Shown here: positions 7,301 through 57,500 of the stretch, piece after piece
Numbering within the stretch: the stretch's first letter is position 1
Layout of the letters: the number at the start of each line of letters is the position of its first letter
NCBI RefSeq assembly: GCF_035084215.1
Contig: NC_090344.1
Location: 43,958,001-44,022,000 of the forward strand
DNA length: 64,000 bases
From: Heptranchias perlo
Lineage: Eukaryota
Direction of reading: 5' to 3'
The notes under the pieces: generated by a model
Databases searched by the model: none
What the model saw: only the letters and a program-made list of their open reading frames with translations
Told to the model about the DNA's origin: nothing
Made by a program: the position numbers and the translations under genes

Positions 7301-10063
7301 TGAGGAACTGGAGGGAGAGGATAGATAACAAAGTAACTGAACACTAGGATTAGATGAACTCTATCAGCTAAAGGATTTTTCTCTTGCAAACAAAGGCTTC
7401 ATCCAGTAGTTCACATGTAGGGTTCTCAAATCATCTTTTTTTAAAAAATGTAACAATCTCATTCTGTATTTATCTTACATGTGACTAGTTTGGCTCAGTT
7501 GGTACAATTCTCATTTCTGAGCAGGAAGGTTATGGGGTTCAAGCCTTGCTTAAGGATTGGAGCACATATGCTGTCCGTTAGAGCTCGAGTGCACTGCACC
7601 AGTGACAGGATGTGGCCGTGTGGATAGGCACAACTCGTAGGAACTAAACTTCACATCTACAGAAGAAATGGGGGGAGGGGGGGAATGAAAGGGAGAGATT
7701 TCATTTTGTGACTTTTTGTGCTCAAAAAAGGTTATTAGTGCTGGGAATGGAACACTTCATTTCAGCATCAAGCATTCCCAGGTAAGGTACAGCACAGTTA
7801 TGTACAAAGTAAAGCTTCTCCTTTGTCCAAACAATGTGCCTCAACTCCAATCTCAGAAGGGTCCTCCATTGCACCAGTGTGACCCTTCTCCATTTTACAC
7901 ATGAGCCATCCAGTGACCTTTTTGGGAGGAACGTTGCCAATTTAGTCCCAAACTCAGATTCTCCACATTAAATATGGCAAGTTGACATATCTATTAGGAA
8001 CAGTTTTTCATTGAGACTGCCCAATCCTAAAGAACGTGTATTTATATAGCTCTTTGTCACATCCTCAGGACATTGTAATCACTGTTGTAAAGCAGGCGAA
8101 ACACTGCAGCCAAATTTGCACACAGCGAAGTCTTATAAACAGCAAATTAGATAAATGATCAGTTTTTAGTGGTGTTATTTGGGGTATTAAATGTTTAACC
8201 AGGATAGTGGGAGAACTCCTTGAATAGTACCAAAGGATCTTTTATGCAGAATGCCTTGTTTTAACAGCCTGGTTGTGCTCAAGTGGTGCTTGAACCCATA
8301 ATCTTCTGACTCCGAGGTGAGAGTACTACAGACTAAGCTACGCTAACACGCATGACCTTCACAGGCATCCGAGGTGGAAGGCCAGTGTTGAATCCACTCC
8401 ACCAGCAAATTCTCGCCCCAAAAGAAGATCATATCCAATGGTGAATATTTAAGAGAAAACCTTCTTAAGCTACAAAATGGGAAATGAAGAAACTTGAAGT
8501 ACTTCTGACTCATATGGTGACTGGGCTTCAGCACAGAGCAAGTCACAAGGCCACTTCCATATCATGTGAGAAAGTAAATTCTTCATGATCAGGGGTCAAT
8601 GCTCTTTATTTGGAAATAAATATAAAGAGCTGAAAAAATGAACACTTAGTTCAATTGACAATAGTTACACATTGCCCAGCTTTAATGTTATAGATTTGGG
8701 CCAGCAGATTCCTGGACTGAAAAGGAAATATTAATAATCTTATTCAAAGCAAAAATAAAATTGCTGGACTATAACTTGGTGTTGTAAAATTGTTTACAAT
8801 TATTCAAAGCTCAGTAACTACCTCTTTGGAGCCAACATATTGCTCAAAGTTGCCCTTAGGAGTTCAATACATATTTCCTTCCAGTAGGCATTCCCTTTGT
8901 TTCCAGCACCTGTCTTTGGTCTGAGTTTAAAGAGCCCTGGAAGCAAAGCTTACATTGTTTACACGGAGGGCTGTAAAACCTCGCTTAATCGGCCATCATT
9001 TTGGGGCTTGGTAAAACTGCTTCATTTGGCTGGTTGGGTGATCACACACAACTCATGAAGTTTCTTCCAAGATTACAAATTTTAATTGCAGCAACATCTG
9101 AATTGCATGTACTAACTTTTAGTCTGCATCAGACACACACAAGGGGACAAGCAACAAGGGCAGTGACTGTGTTAACCACATGAAGATGAGTGAGAAAGAT
9201 TGTACGCTTCATCATTTAAAAGACACCTGTGATTCAACAATGGCAAGAGGCAGCAACTCGATATCAGCACCCACCAAAAGGTCTCAGTTCAGTTTACAGT
9301 GAGTAATGGTATTTGAAGAGCGGGGTGAACTTGATCACAGTTTAATGCTATAAACTGGAGCATTTATCATAAGTATTCCTTTGGTTTAATGTTTTATTTC
9401 TTTGCTCATTTTCCATCAACATCCCACAACTTTTCAAAAGGAGAAAATATAGCTTATCCACCATTTAGTTATCAATTAGTAACAACGTCAAACATTAAAG
9501 CTAATGAAAACCATCGCAAATGCTGAAAATCTGAAATTAAAAACAAAATGCTGGAAGTACAGGGCATGTCAGTCAGCAACTGTCTAAGAGAAAAGGCAGA
9601 TTTTAATGTTTCAGGTGTGAACCCTTCATCCTAAAGGATGTCAATAATAATTGAAAGTTTCCATACTGTATGTATTGTCTGATGTCCCGGAAAACCCGAA
9701 GCAAGAAAAACTTGGCAATGCAGTTATGGTCAAAGTTTGAGGTTCAATTTGTAAGCTCCACTGCGAGAGTTACTCAACCAATCAGATGCTGACCCCCTGT
9801 CAAATGCAGAAGTGCAGAGAGAGGGACTGGAAGTGAGCGATAAAAAAGCGGGAGGCTGCCCCTAGGGACTGAAGCTACTGTTCGAGTATGTTTGTAATTC
9901 TCAGCCAAAAGAAGCGAAAGTTCAACCTGCCAGTTCATTTGAGACCTACCATTCCTCCCAACTCTATGTCCTGATCGTCCGTTAGTATCAGCACGATATT
10001 CCGCCTTACGCAGGTTCCGAACGAACAAGATAGGATCAGGAGCAAAAACGCTGCCAACTTCAT
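1299..10063 (-). CDS. GNS: N-acetylglucosamine-6-sulfatase (GNS)-like gene, 5' part (coding exons 9950-10063, 4465-4524, 3222-3425, 1299-1364); continues beyond the left edge
   Basis: The spliced translation reads [38 protein letters not shown]|[20 protein letters not shown]|[23 protein letters not shown]...[12 protein letters not shown]|[22 protein letters not shown]. It has a signal peptide, the sulfatase NIVLILTDD motif and the CxPSR active-site motif. All junctions are GT-AG, phase 0. It may be a paralog rather than the ortholog of human GNS. Confidence 0.88.
2250..2269 (+). repeat. Poly-G tract (20 nt)
   Basis: Direct read. Confidence 0.9.
3222..3425 (-). CDS. GNS: GNS-like exon 3 (CCPSR formylglycine motif)
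   Basis: CCACAG acceptor, GTAACA donor, 204 nt. Confidence 0.93.
4465..4524 (-). CDS. GNS: GNS-like exon 2
   Basis: TTTCAG acceptor, GTAAGT donor, 60 nt, [20 protein letters not shown]. Confidence 0.9.
6290..6770 (+). mobile_element. CR1 LINE 3' fragment
   Basis: [37 protein letters not shown]. Confidence 0.88.
8751..8799 (+). mobile_element. 49-bp PLE 3'-end micro-insertion with an 11-bp TSD
   Basis: Matches 13606-13653 with 2 mismatches; TTATTCAAAGC at 8740-8750 and 8800-8810. Confidence 0.85.
9950..10063 (-). CDS. GNS: GNS-like exon 1 (signal peptide + NIVLILTDD)
   Basis: ATG at 10063; 114 nt; donor GTAGGT; not in the ORF track frame. Confidence 0.9.
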
Positions 10064-10079
10064 GATATCGGAAGGAAGA

Positions 10080-10450
10080 GCAGCAGCTCCGCAGTCGGAA
10101 GACTCTTAGGGAGAGCCGAATGGGATAACAGCTGGACGCCGGTATGCACACGTAGTGATCAGACACATTTATCTCCAACAGCTGCGGTTTTCCTGCTTCT
10201 CACAAACTTTCTGTATGGCTGTTGACCACGCACAGTTTTAATAAAGCGACAGGAGGTGCATATAATTGACAGGTCACCAAACCAACCAACTGATCCAAAC
10301 ATACTTCAGTCTCTCAATCGCGTTGGAGGTATCGTCCCGCCCCCTTATCGCCCATTAGCATAAAGGGCGTGGCCAGTGCAACATGTATCAGGAGTTTAAC
10401 CCAAACAGCGCTGTCAACTTCAGCAATTCTCAAACACGCCTCCCCAACCA
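10080..10450 (-). promoter_or_regulatory. Probable GNS-like promoter/5'UTR
   Basis: CpG-enriched region directly upstream of the ATG, with GC-box-like CCCGCCCC (~10336) and GGGCGTGGC (~10365). Confidence 0.5.
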
Positions 10451-10589
10451 GGTGGCCATTTTAAATTTTTTTAAAAACCTTTATTTAAAAATCTAAAATA
10501 AATGCAAACAGTTATAAAGCCATTACTTCTTGGATCCAAGTTTCAGGTGAGATGTTAGATTGCAATCTAGTTTGTTGGTTGTGATGGAC

Positions 10590-10948
10590 ATCAAATCCCT
10601 CCATGGCCTCACTCATCCCTATCTTTGGAACCTCCTGCAGCCCTCCAAGAACTCTGCATTCCTCCAATTCTAGTCTCGTGCATCCCCGAATTCCTTCACC
10701 CCACCATTGGCGGCTGTGCCTTCTGCTATCTAGTCCCTAAGGTCTGGAATTCCCTCCCTAAACCTCTCCACCTCTCTCTTTTCCTTTGAGTCGCTCCTTA
10801 AAACCGACCTCTTTGACCAAGCTTTTGGTCACGTGTCCTAATGTCTCCTTTGGCTCAATGTCAATTTTTGTCTCATTACGCTTCTGTGAAGTGTTTTGGG
10901 ATGTTTTACTATGTTAAAGGCACTAAATCAATACAAGCTGTTGTTGTT
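10590..10948 (+). mobile_element. L2-like LINE 3' end with a (TTG)n tail
   Basis: CTCTTTGACCAAGCTTTTGGTCAC...TGTTAAAGGCAC...GTTGTTGTT, shared with other copies in the window. Confidence 0.75.
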
Positions 10949-11046
10949 AAAGTAGCCATGATGTGGAGATGCCGGTGATGGACTGGGGTTAACAATTGTA
11001 AACAATTTTACAACACCAAGTTATAGTCCAACGATTTTATTTTTAA

Positions 11047-11092
11047 TCCCACAAGCTTTCGGGGGCTTTCCCCTTCCTCAGGCGGTGTGGAA
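11047..11092 (-). ncRNA. Minimal hammerhead-ribozyme-like motif (left-arm mirror copy)
   Basis: Reverse complement of 13558-13603. Confidence 0.65.
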
Positions 11093-11302
11093 ATGACAAT
11101 TTCGAATCCTTCGCATTTTAAGATCACATAACAATGCCTGGTGATTACTGCCCGTTGCCAAGGCAATCACAGTGAGCAGACAGAAAGGTGTCATCTAAAA
11201 GGCCACTGAAGAAACAACCCCCCCCAAAAAAGAGAGAGACAGAACGAAGACAGTCAATGACCCGTTATATTAAAAACAGATAACATTTGTTCGCTGGTGG
11301 GG

Positions 11303-12286
11303 TTACGTGTAGTGTGACATGAACCCAAGATCCCGGTTGAGGCCGTCCTCATGGGTGCGGAACTTGGCTATTAATTTCTGCTCGACGATTTTGCGTTGTC
11401 GTGTGTCTCGAAGGCCGCCTTGGAGTATGTTTACCCGAAGGTCGGTGGCTGAATGTCCATGACTGCTGAAGTGTTCCCCGACAGGGAGAGAACCCTCCTG
11501 TTTGGCGATTGTTGCGCGGTGTCCGTTCATCCGTTGTCGCAGCGTCTGCATGGTCTCGCCAATGTACCATGCTCTGGGGCATCCTTTCCTGCAACGTATG
11601 AGGTAGACAACGTTGGCCGAGTCACAGGAGTATGAACCGTGCACCTGGTGGGTGGTGTCCTCTCGTGTGATGGTGGTATCTGTGTCGATGATCTGGCATG
11701 TCTTGCAGAGGTTACCGTGGCAGGGTTGTGTGGTGTCGTGGACGCTGTTCTCCTGAAGGCTGGGTAATTTGCTGCGAACGATGGTTTGTTTGAGGTTGGG
11801 TGGCTGTTTAAAGGCGAGTAGTGGAGGTGTGGGGATGGCCATAGCGAGGTGTTCGTCATCATTGATGACATGTTGAAGGCTGCGGAGAACATGGCGTAGT
11901 TTCTCCGCTCCGGGGAAGTACTGGACGACGAAGGGTACTCTGTTGGTTGCGTCCCGTGTTAGTCTTCTGAGGAGGTCTACGCGATTTTTCGCTGTGGCCC
12001 GTCGGAACTGTCGATCGATGAGTCGACCATCATATCCCGTTCTTACTAGGGCGTCTTTCAGCGTCTGTAGGTGTCCATCGCGTTCCTCCTCGTCTGAGCA
12101 GACCCTGTGTATTCGCAGGGCCTGTCCATAGGGGATGGCCTCTTTGACGTGGTTAGGGTGGAAGCTGGAAAAGTGGAGCATTGTGAGATTGTCCGTGGGT
12201 TTGCGGTAGAGTGAGGTGCTGAGGTGCCCGTCTTTGATGGAGATTCGTGTGTCCAAGAAAGAAACTGATTCTGAGGAGTAGTCCAT
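11303..12286 (-). CDS. PLE ORF C-terminal part (RT thumb/linker, Cys-rich knuckle, GIY-YIG endonuclease), left arm, 327 aa
   Basis: FLD...LYRKPT...SSFHP; CHGNLCKTC; NVVYLIRC...WYIGET...RMNGH...EHF...EQKLI...GLN. Confidence 0.85.
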   Translation of the reverse strand: MDYSSESVSFLDTRISIKDGHLSTSLYRKPTDNLTMLHFSSFHPNHVKEAIPYGQALRIHRVCSDEEERDGHLQTLKDALVRTGYDGRLIDRQFRRATAKNRVDLLRRLTRDATNRVPFVVQYFPGAEKLRHVLRSLQHVINDDEHLAMAIPTPPLLAFKQPPNLKQTIVRSKLPSLQENSVHDTTQPCHGNLCKTCQIIDTDTTITREDTTHQVHGSYSCDSANVVYLIRCRKGCPRAWYIGETMQTLRQRMNGHRATIAKQEGSLPVGEHFSSHGHSATDLRVNILQGGLRDTRQRKIVEQKLIAKFRTHEDGLNRDLGFMSHYT

Positions 12287-12363
12287 GGTGAGCTTGATGG
12301 TGGGATGGAACTTGTTGATGTTATCGTGTTATCAACAAGTTCCATCCCACCATCAAGCTCACC

Positions 12364-13347
12364 ATGGACTACTCCTCAGAATCAGTTTCTTTCTTGGACA
12401 CACGAATCTCCATCAAAGACGGGCACCTCAGCACCTCACTCTACCGCAAGCCCACGGACAATCTCACAATGCTCCACTTTTCCAGCTTCCACCCTAACCA
12501 CGTCAAAGAGGCCATCCCCTATGGACAGGCCCTGCGAATACACAGGGTCTGCTCAGACGAGGAGGAACGCGATGGACACCTACAGACGCTGAAAGACGCC
12601 CTAGTAAGAACGGGATATGATGCTCGACTCATCGATCGACAGTTCCGACGAGCCACAGCGAAAAATCGCGTAGACCTCCTCAGAAGACTAACACGGGACG
12701 CAACCAACAGAGTACCCTTCGTCGTCCAGTACTTCCCCGGAGCGGAGAAACTACGCCATGTTCTCCGCAGCCTTCAACATGTCATCAATGATGACGAACA
12801 CCTCGCTATGGCCATCCCCACACCTCCACTACTCGCCTTTAAACAGCCACCCAACCTCAAACAAACCATCGTTCGCAGCAAATTACCCAGCCTTCAGGAG
12901 AACAGCGTCCACGACACCACACAACCCTGCCACGGTAACCTCTGCAAGACATGCCAGATCATCGACACAGATACCACCATCACACGAGAGGACACCACCC
13001 ACCAGGTGCACGGTTCATACTCCTGTGACTCGGCCAACGTTGTCTACCTCATACGTTGCAGGAAAGGATGCCCCAGAGCATGGTACATTGGCGAGACCAT
13101 GCAGACGCTGCGACAACGGATGAACGGACACCGCGCAACAATCGCCAAACAGGAGGGTTCTCTCCCTGTCGGGGAACACTTCAGCAGTCATGGACATTCA
13201 GCCACCGACCTTCGGGTAAACATACTCCAAGGCGGCCTTCGAGACACACGACAACGCAAAATCGTCGAGCAGAAATTAATAGCCAAGTTCCGCACCCATG
13301 AGGACGGCCTCAACCGGGATCTTGGGTTCATGTCACACTACACGTAA
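12364..13347 (+). CDS. PLE ORF C-terminal part, right arm, 327 aa
   Basis: Identical to the left arm except for one residue (YDGR vs YDAR). Confidence 0.85.
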   Translation: MDYSSESVSFLDTRISIKDGHLSTSLYRKPTDNLTMLHFSSFHPNHVKEAIPYGQALRIHRVCSDEEERDGHLQTLKDALVRTGYDARLIDRQFRRATAKNRVDLLRRLTRDATNRVPFVVQYFPGAEKLRHVLRSLQHVINDDEHLAMAIPTPPLLAFKQPPNLKQTIVRSKLPSLQENSVHDTTQPCHGNLCKTCQIIDTDTTITREDTTHQVHGSYSCDSANVVYLIRCRKGCPRAWYIGETMQTLRQRMNGHRATIAKQEGSLPVGEHFSSHGHSATDLRVNILQGGLRDTRQRKIVEQKLIAKFRTHEDGLNRDLGFMSHYT

Positions 13348-13557
13348 CCCCACCAGCGAACAAATGTTATCTGTTTTTAATATAACGGGTCATTGACTGT
13401 CTTCGTTCTGTCTCTCTCTTTTTTGGGGGGGGTTGTTTCTTCAGTGGCCTTTTAGATGACACCTTTCTGTCTGCTCACTGTGATTGCCTTGGCAACGGGC
13501 AGTAATCACCAGGCATTGTTATGTGATCTTAAAATGCGAAGGATTCGAAATTGTCAT

Positions 13558-13603
13558 TTCCACACCGCCTGAGGAAGGGGAAAGCCCCCGAAAGCTTGTG
13601 GGA
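13558..13603 (+). ncRNA. Minimal hammerhead-ribozyme-like motif in the PLE pseudo-LTR (right arm)
   Basis: CTGAGGA-AGGGG(AAAG)CCCCC-GAAA-GCTT, with flanking CCACA/TGTGG pairing and palindromic AAGCTT in place of stem III. Confidence 0.65.
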
Positions 13604-15947
13604 TTAAAAATAAAATCGTTGGACTATAACTTGGTGTTGTAAAATTGTTTACAGTTGTTAAAGTAAAGCACTCACAACAATCAAAAAACATTTGTACACT
13701 TTTTTTGTTTTAGCAACAAATGCACATAAAGGTTAAGGTACACATGCATATGATCTGCGAATATGAGTATTGAGATCGCATGCCCTATGACGGTGTCTAT
13801 TATTGAATTTTATTTTAATGCCATTCCTTTTGACCTTTTCCCAGTACCGACAGGTTCTGATTCCATAAACCTCCCTGACTGCCACCTCAGACTTCGAAGA
13901 TTTGGAACCTCAACATATTGCTTGAACTCAAATTCAGCTTCTTCCCCCACATCCATTCTGTTGCTGACTGCTTTCTTTCATCTCCACAACACTAACCACC
14001 AGCACCCCAATGCTGCAAAAACCTTAGTCCACGCCTTCAAAACCTCAAAGCTGAACGTTTCTAACACTCTCCAAGTGAGCATGCCCACATTAATCCTCCA
14101 CATTACATCTCAAAATACCACAGCCCTCATCCTCATCTGCACAAAATCTTGCACTGTCATGGCCCCCAAACACTTTGTGGCTCAGTTAATTGACTTAAAA
14201 AAATTCTAATCCTCGCTTTCAAATCCCTTCATTGCTTAATTTTCCCCTCCCCATCAAGTGATCTCCTCCAGTTTTATGTCTTGTTGCATGCATCCTCGAC
14301 TTCTCTAACACTGGACCTCTCTTTGTCCCCCCACTGCACTGTTAGTAAGCCATTATGCCCCTAGCCTCTGAAAGTCCCTGCCTAGTTCTATCCTCTTCAC
14401 CGTTTTCCTTCCTGCTTTCAAAAATTGCCTCAAACCTCTTCTCTTTAACTGTGCCTTTGACTCATCCCACCATAATCCTCTCTTTTCCCTCTTCTGATGT
14501 TTTGTGCCTGGAATATAAATTGATTTGAGATATCTTCCTGCACTTGAAGAAATATGTTTTTTGTGGCCTTTGTGAGAATGTCCACGGAAACACATTACGT
14601 GGAGCTTTTATTATGGTTCAATGCATAAATGCACTGGCCCCTGTAGTCCTGAATCAAAAAGATCAGAAGGTCTCATGTTTGATGTCACTACTTTGCTGTA
14701 TTCGGTGATCTCAGCCAGTAGCAGAGTTGAAATTGGTCTCAATGACCTAGGCTAGGGAGGCAATAAAATACAGCTAAGGTTCACTACCCATCGACCCCCC
14801 ACTGGAAAGTATATGCGTGGATTTTGGGAAGCATGGGATCTGGCTCGACTTTGATGCTGCCCATGGCAAGTAGGCTGGCAATACTCATTGTTTGGGCACA
14901 AGCACGAAGAATGGTCACTAGGGAAAGGCACAAAGAGGGGCCAAAGATTGGTGCGACCCATGGAACTGTACCCCACCAAGAATCATTGCCTTCAAAAGAG
15001 GAGGGCAGGAATTTGGACAAGGAAAATTATTAAACAAAATGGTATTTTACTCGGAATTGTAAAACTTGTCTCCCTCTGCCCCAAATCCAAAGTACTAATA
15101 TGTCTTTCCTTGCATGAAATTATTGCTTTGACCAATATTATATTGCGTGCTCTGTTCAGATTTCTCACATGCTGACCTAAGAGCTGAAATGCAGCTTTTT
15201 GTGGGCAGTACCATGCAGAAGTGTATTGGAGCACGAACACATCACATCTATGACTGCCGACACTGAGTCGCCAATCTCAATTACATTTCGATGGGGAGGC
15301 ATTGAGGACAGCCTCCTTTACTTCTCCACAGAGGGGAAAGAAAGTTGGAGGGAGAATCACTCTCAATCTTCTCTATTGCATCCCTACAGCTGGCTCAGTG
15401 ATACTTGTCAAGATCTGGGCGCTGCTCACCCACACCTCCTCAGCCTGTAGTTGTTGCAAGGCCTGGGAAGACCAAATAAAAAAGGGGAGGGAGGAAATAC
15501 CCTCACAATAAGAAAAATATTCTGAGTCTAATATTAATTAGAAATGTCATAGAAGGAAACATTGGAAATAGCAGCAAGAACCAACTCAGAATACCTGACC
15601 TCAAAATAAATGTTTTTAAGAAACATCCTGTTTGAACGTGAATAATTCGGGCATGAAAAAACATGTTCAATTTTTCCAATGCGGAATCAGATTCAATCAA
15701 TTTTCTGGTCTGTGCTAAGGATTGTCCAAGGATTGTCCAAAATAAGTCCATACTGTAATCTTGGACATTGAATATTACTTTGTTAAACTGTTATATTGTA
15801 ATTCAGCAAAACCCAACTAAGGCTGAAAGATTGTGATACTTACAATTAAGTTTACTGCTGTGCTTTTACTGATTTAGATTTTGTTGATTTACAAGTAAAA
15901 GTACCAGTTTACTTTTACCACGATCATCATTTTGAACTCTCCACCAT

Positions 15948-16487
15948 TGCCTTTCCACCATCTACAAGGCACGAGTCAGGAGTGTGATGGAATACTCTCC
16001 ACTTGCCTGGATGAGTGCAGCTCCAACAACACTCAAGAAGCTCGACACCATCCTGGACAAAGCAGCCCGCTTGATTGGCACCCCATACACCACCCTAAAC
16101 ATTCACTCCCTTCACCACCGGCGCACCGTGGCTGCAGTGTGTACCATCCACAGGATGCACTGCAGCAACTCGCCAAGGCTTCTTTGACAGCACTTCCCAA
16201 ACCCGTGACCTCTACCACCTAGAAGGACAAGGGCAGCAGGCACATGGGAACAACAGCACCTGCACGTTCCCCTCCAAGTCACACACCATCCTGACTTGGA
16301 AATATATCGCTGTTCCTTCATCGTCGCTGGGTCAAAATCCTGGAACTCCCTACCTAACCGCACTGTGGGCGAACCTTCACCACACGGACTGCAGCGGTTC
16401 AAGAAGGCGGCTCACCACCACCTTCTCAAGGGCAATTAGGGATGGGCAATAAATGCTGGCCTTGCCAGCGACGCTCACATCCCATGG
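15948..16487 (+). mobile_element. Short 3' fragment of the same LINE family
   Basis: MEYSPLAWMSAAPTTLKKLDT... followed by the GGGCAATTAGGGATGGGCAATAAATGCTGGCC 3' end. Confidence 0.9.
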
Positions 16488-16689
16488 ACTTCATGATGGT
16501 ACAAATTGTAGTATAGTAGTTGTTTTTAATGAGAATATTACCAATTAATGAAAACTGAAAATGCTGGAAATACTCAGCAAGTCAGGCAGTATATGTGCAG
16601 AAAGAAACAGGTCGATGACCCTTGGTACCAGTTAATACAGCCTAGTGTCTGATGTAGGATATTTGCAATTTATGCATGATGCATAAACT

Positions 16690-38845: not shown

Positions 38846-39203
38846 ATTCCCCTTATTCCTTAAATATGAGGTCTTCCAATAAAAATTGTAAAATAAACTT
38901 TTATTAACGAGACCATGGAGTGCTTTTCCCCCTAGGACCTCAGCACTGTTGAGTGCTGTCTTCCTTTCTTCCTACAAAAAAGGAAGACAGATGGGTTTCA
39001 CACATTTCCTCTATCCTAATGGGCATTTGATTGAAGTTTAGTACAAAGTATCGGTGGGGCATTCAACTGGGGGAGGGCGTCACAGTTGAGCCCAGACCTG
39101 TATCACCTGGCCCTCCCAGCCACAAGCACAACATAGCAGTTAGGAGCAGGTTTCCCCATCCTCCATTCCTGTTGTGGTCACAGGCCAACTGTGGCCAACT
39201 CAC

Positions 39204-39532
39204 AGACCAGGCACCTTGTGTACAGTTCAGGACCACACCATGGATTAATAACCAATTCAAAGACCAGGCACCTTGTGTACAGTTCAGGACCACACCATGG
39301 ATTATTGACCAATTCAAAGACCAGGCACCTTGTGTACAGTTCAGGACCATACCATGGATTATTGACCAATTCAAAGACCAGGCACCTTGTGTACAGTTCA
39401 GGACCATACCATGGATTATTGACCAATTCAAAGACCAGGCACCTTGTGTACAGTTCAGGACCATACCATGGATTATTGACCAATTCAAAGACCAGGCACC
39501 TTGTGTACAGTTCAGGACCATACCATGGATTA
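39204..39532. repeat. Minisatellite, 57-bp unit, ~5.8 copies
   Basis: AGACCAGGCACCTTGTGTACAGTTCAGGACCATACCATGGATTATTGACCAATTCAA starting at 39204, 39261, 39318, 39375, 39432 and 39489. Confidence 0.97.
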
Positions 39533-48500: not shown

Positions 48501-51500
48501 GCGTGTGTGTGGACGTTGGGTATAATCGGAATCGAGCTTGGTAGTGATGTCCTCTGTGGTAGAATAGCCTGCTGATATTCACTATTTAGGCAGACAAAAG
48601 AATGGTCTCTTGGGGGTAGGTACTGAAAGTCTACCAGTGCCCAAGAAACTCTACCCAGGAGAAATTGATGCCTTCAGGAGGCGAGGGGAGAAAACTGTGG
48701 TGGAGTAGATCAGCGCCAAAATCTAACTGATCTGAGCTGTAAGAATCCATTCCAAAATACCTCCAAATAAGAAAATGATTGTGTCATCGACAGTGCTATC
48801 AAGCGGCACTTACCAATAACCTGCTCACCGATGCTCAGTTTGGGTTCCGCCAAACCGCTCCAGACCTCATTACAGCCTTGGTCCAAACATGGACATAAGA
48901 GCTGAATTCCAGAGGTGAGGTGAGAGTGACTGCCCTTGACATCAAGGCAGCATTTGACCGAATGTGGCACCAAGGAGCCCAAGTAAAAATGAAGTCAATG
49001 GGAATCAGGGGGAAAACTCTCCAGTGGCTGGAGTCATACCTAGCACAAAGGAAGATGGTAGTGGTTGTTGGAGGCCAATCATCTCAGCCCCAGGACATTG
49101 CTGCAGGAGTTCCTCAGGGCAGTGTCCTAGGCCCAACCATCTTCAGCTCCTTCATCAATGACCTTCCCTCCATCATAAGGTCAGAAATGGGGATGTTCGC
49201 TGATGATTGCACAGTGTTCAGTTCCATTCGCAACCCCTCAAATAATGAAGCAGGCCGTGCCCGCATGCAACAAGACCTGGACAGCCTCCAGGCTTGGGCT
49301 GATAAATGGCAAGTAACGTTCGCGCCAGACAAATACCAGGCAATGACCATCTCCAACAAGAGCGAGTCTAACCACGTCCCCTTGACATTCAACAGCATTA
49401 CCATCGCCAAATCCCCCACCATCAACATCCTGGGGGTCACCATTGACCAGAAACTTAACTGGACCAGCCGTATGAATACTGTGGCAACAAGAGCAGGTCA
49501 GAGGCTGGGTATTCTGCGGCGAGTAACTCGCCTCCTGACTCCTCAAAGCCTTTCCACCATCTACAAGGCACAAGTCAGGAGTGTGATGGAATACTCTCCA
49601 CTTGCCTGGATGAGTGCAGCTCCAACAACACTCAAGAAGCTCAACACCATCCAGGACAAAGCAGCCCACTTGATTGGGACCCCAACCACCACCCTAAACA
49701 TTCACTCCCTTCACCACCGGCGCACTGTGGCTGCAGTGTGTACCATCCACAGGATTCACTGCAGCAACTCGCCAAGGCTTCTTCGACAGCACCTCCCAAG
49801 CCCGCGACCTCTACCACCTAGAAGGACAAGGGTAGCAGGCACATGGGAACAACACCACCTGCATGTTCCCCTCCAAGTCACACACCATCCCGACTTGGAA
49901 AAATATCGCCGTTCTTTCATCGTCGCTGGGTCAAAATCTTGGAACTCCCTTCCGAACAGCACTGTGGGAGAACCTTCACCACACGGCCTGCAGCAGTTCA
50001 AGAAGGCGGCTCACCACCACCTTCTCAAGGGCAATTAGGGATGGGCAATAAATGCTGGCCTCGCCAGCGATGCCCACATCCCATGAACAAATTTTTTTTA
50101 AACATGAGGCAAAGCAAGGTTAGATGGCGCAACATGTTGCTGCTCCCACACCATGAGCTTCAGAGTGCAGGAAGCGTCAGTGCCCGGGCCACCGTTCCAT
50201 CTTCGTAAATGTTCTGTCAGCTGTAGTGTACATTTTCATCTCTGATTGACAGCAACCCTGATCCAGGCAATATCTGCTGAAAGCATGACAGTTTTTAGTA
50301 AACCACCTTGTCAGGGTTAGATTGTATTTGTGACCTTAGTGGATTTCTTTTAAATGGGCAGTTGTGATTCATGGTTCAGCGTTGAGAGTTATCTGGATCA
50401 CAATGCAATTGGACCACAAGCAAACAGCCCGTAAATTGTTTGCAGTGCAAGAAGCTAAATGTTCACAGGTCGGTAAATGGTGTCCCAAGTTAATCCTGCC
50501 ACAAAGGGCCTTTTGCTTTTAAAGATTTCTAGCTGCTATCTGTTGGTTGGAGGGGACAATGTTAGTTTGTGTATTTAATATGAAATGTGTAATTCCCAAA
50601 TCCTCTACTTCCAGTATTCCTGCAGACACGGCACATGAAGGTGATGGGAAGTGTTTGGTACAGCTCATTCAATAAGTATTGGTGTTTTTGAGAGCCTAAC
50701 ATGTCGGAGTTTCATGAAATACTAGTTCTGATGTGTCAACTTGGCTCAGTTGGTGACACTCTTGCCTCCAGGTCGTAGATTTGAATCCCATGACACAGTC
50801 TGGGTTTGAGCTCATAATCTAGACTGTAGTGCAGTACTGAGGGCATGCTGCACTGTTAAAGGTGCCGGCCTTTGGATGAGACTCAGATCTGATGGTTCAG
50901 GTGGGCGTTCAAGATCCCTTGGGATGTTTTGAAGAAGAGTGGGGAGTTCTCTCTGTTCTGGCCAAATGCCGGCTCTGAATGCTATCGTCAAAATGATGTT
51001 GTTCTTCCACTCCCAAATGCTATGCTACACACCAGTCCCCAATATGTGGTGGACGAAAGGCTGGTTCTTAAGCTTCTGGTAATGTTCTTCTGTTGTTGGC
51101 TGCTAGAGACTGATTTTTTTTTAAATTAGATTTTCTTCCATTCCACTTGAATGAGGAAGTGCTTCGCTCCAGCTTGCTGCCTTACTCTCACCCCCTCGTC
51201 AGATCCCCAGTAGAATGCTAATAATAGATTCAGAACGTGGCAGAGGCTGGGAATTTATCAGAGCTCTGAAAACTGAAGATTAATACGAAATTGCGCTACT
51301 GCGTGTCAAGGCAAACTAAATCTTTTTTGCCTAGCGTGAAACATAATTGGGATGTGTCACTGATGTGTAAAAATGGCACTGGAGAGAAAATGGGAAAGGC
51401 TGCGGTTTCATTTGGTCACCTCGGTTTTGTTATTTTTGTTTGTACACAGGTGTCTGTAGACATACAGAGCAACTGGCTGCGCGTGGCTGTGTTTGAAGGA

Positions 51501-54500: not shown

Positions 54501-57500
54501 ACTTTCAAAATACAGGCATAACAAAGCTCCAAAAATACCACTGCAGCTGCATGCCCATTAAATGCCACTTGTTCATAGTGCATGGGTGCTTCCCCATAAG
54601 GAGGGAAAGTTGGCAGGGAAATCCTATCACCCATCTCCCAGTGTCCTTAGTCCTCTCCAAGCAACTGGCTGAAGGCTATTGGCATCGGCCTACTTGTCCA
54701 GGTGGTTTTTCAAATTGGAAAAGGGTCTGGAGAGACATTGGGGAGGGGCATTATCTTTTTAAAAGACAGAGAGGGAGAAGTCCTTTGCTGGCTCATTGGT
54801 TAAGCAGTACTGAGCCAAACAGACAGGCGCATTCAATCTCTGGACAACGGCAAGGCAACAATGGGATGCTCAAGTTATCCTTAATCATCCAGGGTTGAGG
54901 AGGGAAGAAATCAGCCAGGGTTCCCGATCCTAATCGTTATCCAGTGATGCCTGGTGGAGAGTGTGCAGTTGTGGAAGTCATTTGAGGATAGGGACAGGAT
55001 TGACTATCTTACCCTCGACTTCTGTGCTTTTTTTTAATCGTTCATGGGATGTGGGCGTCGCTGGTGCGCATGTATTGCCCATCCCTAATTGCCCTTGAGA
55101 AGGTGGTGGTGAGCCGCCGCCTTGAACCGCTGCAGTCCGTGTGGTGAAGGTTCTCCCACAGCGCTGTTAGGAAGGGAGTTCCAGGATTTTGACCCAGCGA
55201 CGATGAAGGAACGGCAATATATTTCCAAGTCGGGATGGTGTGTGACTTGGAGGGGAATGTGCAGGTGGTGTTGTTCCCATGTGCCTGCTGCTCTTGTCCT
55301 TCTTGGTGGTAGAGGTTGCGGGTTTTGGAGGTGCTGTCGAAGAAGCCTTGGCGAGTTGTTGCAGTGCGTCCTGTCGATGGTACACACTGCAGCCACTGTG
55401 CGCCGGTGGTGAAGGGAATGAATGTTTAGAGAGGTGGTTGGGGTGCCAATCAAGTGGGCTGTTTTGTCCTGGATGGTGTCGAGCTTCTTGAGTGTTGTTG
55501 GAGCTGCACTCATCCAGGCAAGTGGAGAGTATTCCATCACACTCCTGACTTGTGCCTTGTAGATGATGGAAAGGCTTTGGGGAGTCAGGAGGTAAGTCAC
55601 TCGCCGCAGAATATCCAGCCTCTGACCTGCTCTTGTAGCCACAGTATTCTTCGGCTGGTCCAGTTCAGTTTCTGGTCAATGATGACCCCCAGGATGTTGA
55701 TGGTGGGGGATTTGGCAATGGTAATGCCGTTGAATGTCAAGGGGAGGTGGTTAGACACTCTCTTGTTGGAGATGTCATTGCCTGGCACTTGTCTGGCGCA
55801 AATGTTACTTGCCACTTATCATCCCAAGCCTGGATGTTGTCCAGGTCTTGCTGCATGTGGGCTCGGACTGCCTCATTATTTGAGGGGTTGCGAATGGAAC
55901 TGAACACTGTGCAATCATCAGCAAACATCCCCATTTCTGACCTTATGATGGAGGGAAGGTCATTGATGAAGCAGCTGAAGCTGGTTGGGCCTAGGACACT
56001 GCCCTGCGGAACTCGTGCAGCAATGTCCTGGTGCTGAGATGATTGGCCTCCAACAACCACTACCATCTTCCTTTGTGCTAGGTATGACTCCAGCCACTGG
56101 AGAGTTTTCCCCCTGATTCCCATTGACTTCAATTTTACTAGGGCTCCTTGCTGCCACACTCTGTCATATGCTGCCTTGATGTCAAGGACAGTCACTCTCA
56201 CCTCACCTCTGGAATTCAGCTCTTTTGTCCATGTTTGGACCAAGGCTGTAATGACGTCTGGAGCCGAGTGGTCCTGGCAGAACCAAAACTGAGCATCGGT
56301 GAGCAGGTTATTGGCCAGTGCCGCTTGATCGCACTGTCGACGACACTTTCCATCACTTTGCTGATGATTGAGAGTAGATGGATGGGGTGGTAATTGGCCG
56401 GATTGGATTTGTCCTGCTTTTTGTGGCCAGGACATACCTGGGCAATTTTCCACATTGTTGGGTAGATGCCAGTGTTGTAGCTGTGCTGGAACAGCTTGGC
56501 TTGAGGCGTGGCTCGTTCTGGAGCACAAGTCTTCAGCACTACAGCCGGGACTTTGTCGGGGCCCATCGCCAGTGCACTCAGCCATTTCTTGATCATGTGG
56601 GAGTGAATCGAATTAGCTGCAGACTGGCTTCTGTGATAGTGGGGATATCGGGAGGAGGCCGAAATGGATCCTCCACTCGGCGCTTCTGGCTGCAGATGGT
56701 TGCAAACGCTTCAGCCTTGTCTTTTGCACTCACGTGCTGGACTCCGTCATCATCGAGGCTGGGGATGTTTACAGCGCTCCTCCCGTTAGTTGTTTAATTG
56801 TCCACCACCATTCACAACTGGATGTGGCAGGACTGCAGAGCTTTGATCTGATCCGTTGGTTGTGGAATCGCTTCGCTCTGTCTATAGCATGTTGCTTCCG
56901 CTGTTTCGCATGCATGTAGTCCTGAGTTGCAGCTTCACCAGGTTGGCACCTCATTTTTAGGTACACTTGGTGCTGCTCCTGGCAAACTCTTCTACACTCC
57001 TCATTGAACCAGGGTTGATCCCCTGGCTTGTTGGTAATGGTAGAGTGAGGAATATGCCGGGCCAGGAGGTTACAGATTGTGCTGGAATACAATTCTGCTG
57101 CTGCTGATGGCCCACAGTGCCTCATGGATGCCCAGTTTTGAGCTGCTGGATCTGTTCTGAATCTATCCCATTTAGCACGGTGATAGTGCCACACAACAAG
57201 TTGAATGGTATCCTCAGTGCGAAGCCGGGACTTTGTCTCCACGAGGACTGTGCGGTGGTCACTCCTACCAATACTGTCATGGACAGATGCATCTGCGACA
57301 GGTAGATTGGTGAGGACGAGGTCAAGTAAGTTTTTCCCTCACCACCTGCCACAGGCCCAGTCTGGCAGTTATGTCGGTCAGTCGTGGTGCTACTGAGCCA
57401 CTCTTGATGGACATTGGAGTCCCCCACCCAGAGTACATTCTGTGCCCATGCTACCCTCAGTGCTTCCTCCAAGTGGTGTTCAACATGGAGGAGGACTGAT

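Follow-up and report, generated by a model that had tools for sequence, protein, structure and literature searches.

The window analysed here is a stretch of 64,000 nucleotides of Heptranchias perlo DNA, in which a long palindrome, made of two head-to-head copies of a Penelope-like element (PLE), lies between two genes (Table 1). To its left is a sulfatase (GNS-like) gene, whose first exon is defined by a contig from a guessed-RNA run that matches it exactly and continues elsewhere. The exon lies 650 nt from the element, in agreement with the preliminary description, which had placed a GNS-like promoter less than 1 kb away. To the right, a Pol mu/TdT-like gene begins about 3 kb from the element. 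The name POLM, given to it before, is based on synteny; a neighbour of the Pol mu/TdT type is indeed present, but its BRCT exon scores slightly better for TdT (6e-11) than for Pol mu (3.6e-9).

Structure of the palindrome and its target site

Position-by-position pairing aligned the two arms (10997-12319 and 12331-13653, 1323 bp each) at i+j=24650, a register in which 1326 of 1330 positions pair, against only 328-400 of 1330 in other registers. The arms differ at exactly three places (11999/12651, 12027/12623 and 12200/12450), so that the palindrome was reproduced with the arms, coordinates and mismatches first described for it. The mismatches had been placed near the centre, which holds in the sense that they lie 120, 293 and 321 nt from it, in the inner quarter of the arms; were mismatches uniformly distributed, such clustering would have P=0.014 in a test chosen post hoc.

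A detail that is new concerns the centre, for which a spacer of 11 nt had been given. Contigs from four sequencing runs were compared with positions 9300-12362, a range that includes one arm only, and in all four runs the family contigs matched through 12329 and then diverged. From this loose end, the left arm is read as 10 nt longer at its 5' end, which assigns ten of the 11 spacer bases (12320-12329) to the left-arm element and leaves T12330 alone as extra. This base is likely a non-templated addition or the result of slippage.

The unit is enclosed by a 12-bp target-site duplication (TSD), GTTGTTAAAGTA, which occurs twice in the 64 kb, at the two ends of the unit, and on the minus strand nowhere within the window. 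As a single TSD surrounds the whole, the earlier view of one insertion event is borne out. The flanks to the left and right are unrelated to each other, and excision of the palindrome in silico leaves a LINE 3' end, a short TTG tail and then unique DNA, as in three other copies of this LINE end. The element had been said to sit in the (TTG)n tail of an L2. The TSD does begin inside the three-unit TTG tail, but it extends 6 nt beyond, and L2 (or L2-like) is the label of the preliminary description, a name that no search returned.

Table 1. Features of the palindrome locus, in positions of the 64-kb window
Feature	Position	Strand	Basis or remark
Second family insertion	8740..8810	+	49 nt of pLTR end (8751-8799) within an 11-bp TSD (8740-8750 / 8800-8810); same tail-less end site
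First exon of neighbouring sulfatase (GNS-like) gene	9950..10304	-	Contig of guessed-RNA run, 0 differences; translation
Older LINE 3' end with short TTG tail	10590..10948	+	74-84% like three further window copies; element inserted at tail end
Left TSD copy, 12 bp	10943..10954	+	Two copies only in window
PLE tail, 42 nt, left arm only	10955..10996	-	Ends with ATG of next ORF + 2 nt
Left arm, 5'-truncated PLE copy	10997..12329	-	3' UTR/pLTR and 3' part of ORF (11303-12328)
Candidate minimal hammerhead motif, left pLTR	11049..11085	-	Descriptor scan
Single base outside both arms	12330		Strand undefined; pairing of arms, loose end of family contigs
Right arm, 5'-truncated PLE copy without tail	12331..13653	+	Open frame 12331-13347 (end of RT, linker, GIY-YIG)
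Candidate minimal hammerhead motif, right pLTR	13565..13601	+	Descriptor scan
Right TSD copy	13654..13665	+	Bases 2-8 are the element's own continuation (7-nt microhomology after one mismatch)

Identity of the element

Each arm has an open frame of about 340 codons, whose product is 93% identical to the C-terminal 338 amino acids of the Heptranchias perlo protein P0001, which carries RVT_1 (5e-9). It is 93-98% identical to the 15 listed members of a 54-member H. perlo cluster and 83-85% identical to four Scyliorhinus proteins, and this homology to shark PLE proteins supports the original assignment of the arms to a PLE and points to a shark as the host. The GIY-YIG match in the arm is weak (E=0.0019, 18.9 bits, under the Pfam cut-off of 22.6), and the columns of the YxG..R motif are conserved in a 7-sequence alignment. 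Compared with the shark PLE proteins annotated in Heptranchias perlo, Scyliorhinus and Mustelus (the P0001 cluster, P0002, P0018 and P0019), the window has only the last 338 residues, and the RT core is missing from the truncated copy. As the unit has no complete RT, it is a dead copy, and most likely it has no selected function. A MITE or foldback DNA transposon was also considered and rejected, since the arms consist of a retroelement ORF and the two ends differ by the tail.

The features that mark endonuclease-bearing (EN+) PLEs were found in several forms. A single ORF with an RT followed by a C-terminal GIY-YIG endonuclease is indicated by the homology to P0001 and by the motif; an inverted 5'-truncated copy adjoins the first, with a TSD round the unit; the tail from a tandem template is at one end only, with 42 nt on the left; and the pLTR holds a hammerhead motif as predicted by a descriptor scan. 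On the sequence evidence, the palindrome is one insertion of an endonuclease-bearing PLE in the known head-to-head layout.

The extra tail of about 42 nt had been noticed on the left arm only, where it was located again, and it had been likened to the beginning of a following ORF in a tandem template. Its translation, VHHRHLHIM, corresponds to the residues that lead up to the ORF-start Met of P0018, the residue at which P0019 begins. This match up to the start Met of shark PLE ORFs agrees with the proposal and implies that the template RNA ran from the pLTR into the next ORF. The hammerhead descriptor (the core, an unpaired base before G10.1-C11.1 and a palindromic 15.2-16.2; features from an excerpt of PMC4209133) matched once per strand in the 64 kb, both times in the pLTRs. 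Rfam gave no hammerhead in the window, and the full three-helix hammerhead fold was absent from the minimum-free-energy single-strand folds.

Junctions and arm alleles

The ends of the unit recur elsewhere in the family. The end of the right arm is 1-3 nt away from that of the independent 49-nt copy in the second insertion. Among the matches listed, joints at other loci fall at two places, three rows at 10996-10998 and three at 10958-10959, which coincide with the tail-less and the tailed site of the palindrome. At the right end, one mismatch is followed by a 7-nt match, TTGTTAA, between the TSD and the continuation of the element. At the centre, the 5' ends of the arms are 10 nt apart with one extra base at the join, and the repeat GTTATC-GT-GTTATC allows a reading in which 4 nt were copied again and an ATC/GAT stem formed; the 3-bp fold-back stem is unfavourable (+1.1 kcal/mol). 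A one-base T insert also occurs elsewhere in the family where a cDNA end meets the tail (11761 to 10959; a joint of unspecified kind). Two opposite-strand joints of the family, among the matches listed, have no shared letters (both=0), and asymmetric family joints are found at 12159/12329 and 11425/11937.

It is extremely improbable that the palindrome is an artefact of assembly or of a fold-back read. Neither a spanning read nor, among the matches listed for the contigs of four runs, a contig bridging the palindrome's own junctions was seen, and the contigs cover one arm only; yet the flanks are different unique sequences and no mirror images, the TSD is exact, the arms differ at three places, and both ends fall on the two natural start sites of the family. 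The left flank (9300-10624) is also matched with 0 differences by a DNA contig, which comes from the same sample and hence is not independent. An empty-site contig was not found among the matches listed for organisms D and E or the same sample.

At ten positions, both arms share a minority allele that makes up at most 0.8-10% of the family depth, which is summed contig depth and is not taken as copy number. Two alleles are private to the left arm, 12027 at 0.006% and 12200 at 0.07% of family depth, and at both the right arm has the family base; mismatch 11999 is outside the 40 of 200 allele rows listed, so that privacy refers to two of the three mismatches. Gly98, which results from a left-private change, is present in 0 of 19 homologues. 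None of the three arm mismatches is a CpG transition (P about 0.04-0.24), while 11% of arm sites are CpG, and the CpG observed/expected ratio in the arm, 0.86, suggests youth. If the mismatches are copying errors, the palindrome may be very recent. If they are germline mutations, at the epaulette-shark rate of 7e-10 per base per generation (PMC10587355, excerpt), it would have persisted for about 1.6 million generations between two promoters, contrary to the preliminary description of such a structure as deletion-prone.

Origin of the palindrome

We put the chances at about even that reverse transcription was primed from each of the two nicks in a cut staggered by 12 nt, and that the resulting two cDNAs were joined end to end. 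From the one TSD, the two truncated copies of one subfamily, the tailed start on the left and the tail-less start on the right, we infer all of the steps of synthesis. On a tandem RNA running from the pLTR into the next ORF, the top-strand nick would have served as the primer for synthesis from the tailed site, and the bottom-strand nick for synthesis from the internal site, which lies 42 nt further upstream. With a single broken RNA read by both, the two copies would stop almost together. The cDNAs would be fused, with one base added, by a template jump or by end joining, and each cDNA would then serve as the template for the other's second strand. Double priming would account for the left-private changes, the two natural start sites and the TSD. 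It needs the assumption of a single RNA, because stops that were independent would fall no more than 10 nt apart with a chance of only about 1%, and it also needs a high RT error rate, near 1e-3, to produce 3 errors in 2646 nt. The left-private changes, of which there are two, may instead be later mutations or assembly errors, and the missing bridging contig among the matches listed counts against this origin as well.

A more specific form of this reading, which we put forward tentatively and with some doubt, is that the unit is the clean footprint of a PLE dimer, in which both nicks acted as primers on one RNA, one per RT start site, and the cDNAs were fused by a template jump. In work with a purified PLE protein, each of the two strands was nicked and extended, with the tail lying between the two start sites on the RNA, and the protein is predicted to be a dimer (PMC11167929).

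The published reading of such junctions is self-priming (PMC3846280, excerpt), which stands against double priming. In the corresponding model for this locus, only the left nick acted as a primer; the cDNA stalled, slipped, folded back and was copied back. The element's endonuclease, or a flap cut, would then have shortened the sense copy to the tail boundary, and 7 nt of this copy would have paired with the right overhang. The near-equal arm ends follow directly from such a fold-back, and both self-priming and endonuclease resolution have been suggested in print (PMC8557442 and PMC3846280, excerpts). Both the TTGTTAA match of 7 nt on the right and the central repeat, with its slip, 4-nt re-copy and ATC/GAT stem, count in favour of slippage and fold-back and fit them as well as they fit double priming. 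However, the stem is unfavourable, and the two opposite-strand joints of the family, among the matches listed, are without shared letters. Only the top strand carries the unpaired loop in antisense, which in a fold-back would make the left arm the first to be synthesised; errors of the fold-back would then be shared or confined to the right arm. Yet the two mismatches that could be placed are confined to the left arm; they would have to be later mutations, and none is at a CpG. We regard the fold-back as unlikely, and the ten minority alleles common to both arms, set beside the two left-private mismatches, mildly favour double-nick priming with an end-to-end join.

The centre may also have been altered after insertion. 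Central revision of long palindromes is known, with yeast inverted repeats as a general case. The centre would originally have been longer or perfectly symmetric; cleavage of the hairpin tip or a central deletion would have given the 10-nt asymmetry, the extra base and the mutations near the centre, and arm-to-arm conversion would have kept the outer arms identical. The clustering of the mismatches in the inner quarter and the asymmetric family joints are consistent with this, as is the finding that 6 of 28 metagenome PLE loci (5 distinct elements) have a partial copy in inverted orientation, the gaps measuring 218-4165 nt; all of these loci are distant PLEs on short contigs. That sample, however, consists of short-read assemblies, which collapse symmetric units, and at the shark locus no trace of a second allele was seen and the arm CpG ratio speaks for youth. 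We consider such a revision quite improbable. In the same metagenome set, the palindromes at loci L005 and L011 are (AT)n runs and those at L010 and L020 are 26-36 nt long. Among 39 candidate viral contigs, none was confirmed.

Possible transcription and silencing

The preliminary description proposed that any transcript running across both arms of the palindrome would be a source of dsRNA that could restrain the family, an idea compatible with any origin. A transcript through both arms is predicted to form a very stable hairpin, and the sulfatase promoter is close by. To cross the unit from this promoter, however, a plus-strand transcript would have to extend over 3.3 kb and pass two poly(A) signals, AATAAA (10497) and ATTAAA (11269). 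On the opposite side, minus-strand signals are present at 16525, 14607 and 13809, and the two pLTRs are oriented outwards. The hairpin-siRNA idea for inverted Penelope copies is already published: siRNAs map to inverted Penelope regions in Drosophila, but they were judged unable to silence Penelope efficiently (PMC3681739, excerpt). The Penelope promoter is internal to its 5' region (PMC2377424, excerpt). For the shark palindrome, we consider silencing of this kind very unlikely.

Of 24 sequencing runs, none is recorded as RNA and four (X5-X8) were guessed to be RNA; one guessed-RNA run was compared with the locus, as contigs. Family sequence is abundant in the contigs of X5, with no link to the palindrome locus. 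Contig cover in X5 is zero at 10330-10535 and the locus alleles at 12027, 12182, 12188 and 12200 have no depth, which is not counted as silence, since contigs drop rare variants. MicroRNA models from Rfam at the centre of the palindrome were rejected, as they score below the gathering scores and match any hairpin.

Discussion

The palindrome is a known inverted PLE layout in a near-symmetric form. An inverted 5'-truncated copy adjoining the 5' end, with a tail at one end, is typical of PLEs (PMC8557442, Craig et al. 2021, excerpt); inverted units occur inside TSDs of 8-10 bp, and head-to-head is their commonest arrangement (PMC3846280, Arkhipova et al. 2013, excerpt); and inverted pLTRs are a routine feature (PMC8969392, excerpt). 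The earlier remark that PLEs often make inverted structures thus agrees with the published layout, and the unit is ordinary for a PLE. The EN+ PLE units in the excerpts of PMC8557442 and PMC3846280 share with it the inverted 5'-truncated copy, the head-to-head order, the one-end tail, the enclosing TSD, the junction palindrome and the simple-repeat target. In contrast to these, both arms here stop no more than 10 nt apart, which makes the unit nearly all palindrome; the TSD has 12 bp instead of the 8-10 bp of the rotifer examples, and the tail 42 nt instead of the 30-40 quoted.

Poseidon of Anolis (Frangieh et al. 2024, PMC11167929) has in common with the shark element the two RT start sites bounding the tail, the nicking and extension of both strands and a hammerhead in the pLTR, which here is a candidate motif. 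In Poseidon, the ORF begins at hammerhead stem II and includes the tail, whereas the shark element has its start codon at the tail end. No homology between RNA start site and target is reported for Poseidon, in contrast to the 7 nt at the right end here, and inverted units are undiscussed in the main text of that paper. The inverted Penelope copies of Drosophila (PMC3681739, excerpt) likewise have long inverted repeats able to form dsRNA; siRNAs were measured there, whereas for the shark unit transcripts and small RNAs are hypothetical. A literature search on Penelope, shark and palindrome found nothing relevant, and the excerpt of bioRxiv 10.64898/2026.07.22.740005 has nothing on an inverted PLE layout.

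In twin priming of LINE-1, both ends of the target act as primers and two different, non-overlapping parts of the RNA are copied. Priming from both target ends is also what we propose for the shark element, but here both arms copy the same part of the RNA.

As a structure, the palindrome is of little weight; its value is that of a young example with readable junctions. In the open-access literature that we found, partly as excerpts, the PLE layout is explained by self-priming or endonuclease resolution. Double priming by a dimer, if true, would bring under a single mechanism three features that the field still lists as unexplained, namely the inverted copy, the tail on one side and the TSD around the unit. 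With its pair of start sites, its one added base and its alleles private to an arm, the unit turns the origin of inverted PLE copies into a question that can be tested by counting on a long-read shark assembly.

Related sequences at other loci

Comparison with contigs from sequencing runs revealed opposite-strand joints at other loci, one at 12159/12329 in run X5 (presumed RNA) and one at 11425/11937 in run X12 (window coordinates), which are additional inverted junctions within the Penelope-like element (PLE) family of the palindrome. The X5 joint stops at the very position where the left arm of the palindrome stops, possibly only because the element sequence in the compared stretch stops there. 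Over the same stretch (window 9300-12362), run X11, labelled as another organism, gave a 1115-nt contig differing from the arm by 13 letters, together with LINE pieces; its contigs did not cover 9609-10535. This material looks more like trace shark DNA than like horizontal transfer.

Pieces of the PLE ORF also occur inside several shark gene models (P0006, P0008-P0011, and P0031), including septin 5a, XRCC5, PPP1R12A-like, and others, reflecting either exonisation or annotation error. In two metagenome contigs carrying distant PLEs, (AT)n runs form the contig ends (L005:3685-3735 and L011:1911-1952), in line with the known targeting of simple repeats by PLEs.

Repeats and orientation within the window

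A second PLE insertion, 49 nt long, is intronic to the sulfatase gene.

Further repeat features in the window
Feature	Position	Details
Insertion, same PLE family as the palindrome	8740-8810	49 nt; 11-bp TSD (target-site duplication)
Inverted pair of LINE copies	48781-50088 and 55040-56346	92.7% identity across 1.3 kb
Third piece of the same LINE	15939-16489	
Tandem repeat	39192-39532	units of ~57 nt; several frames open

Both pLTRs of the palindrome (10955-11100 and 13550-13653) face outward, each in the same orientation as its adjoining gene. Given this arrangement, the pLTRs could serve as upstream promoters, instead of producing hairpin RNA.
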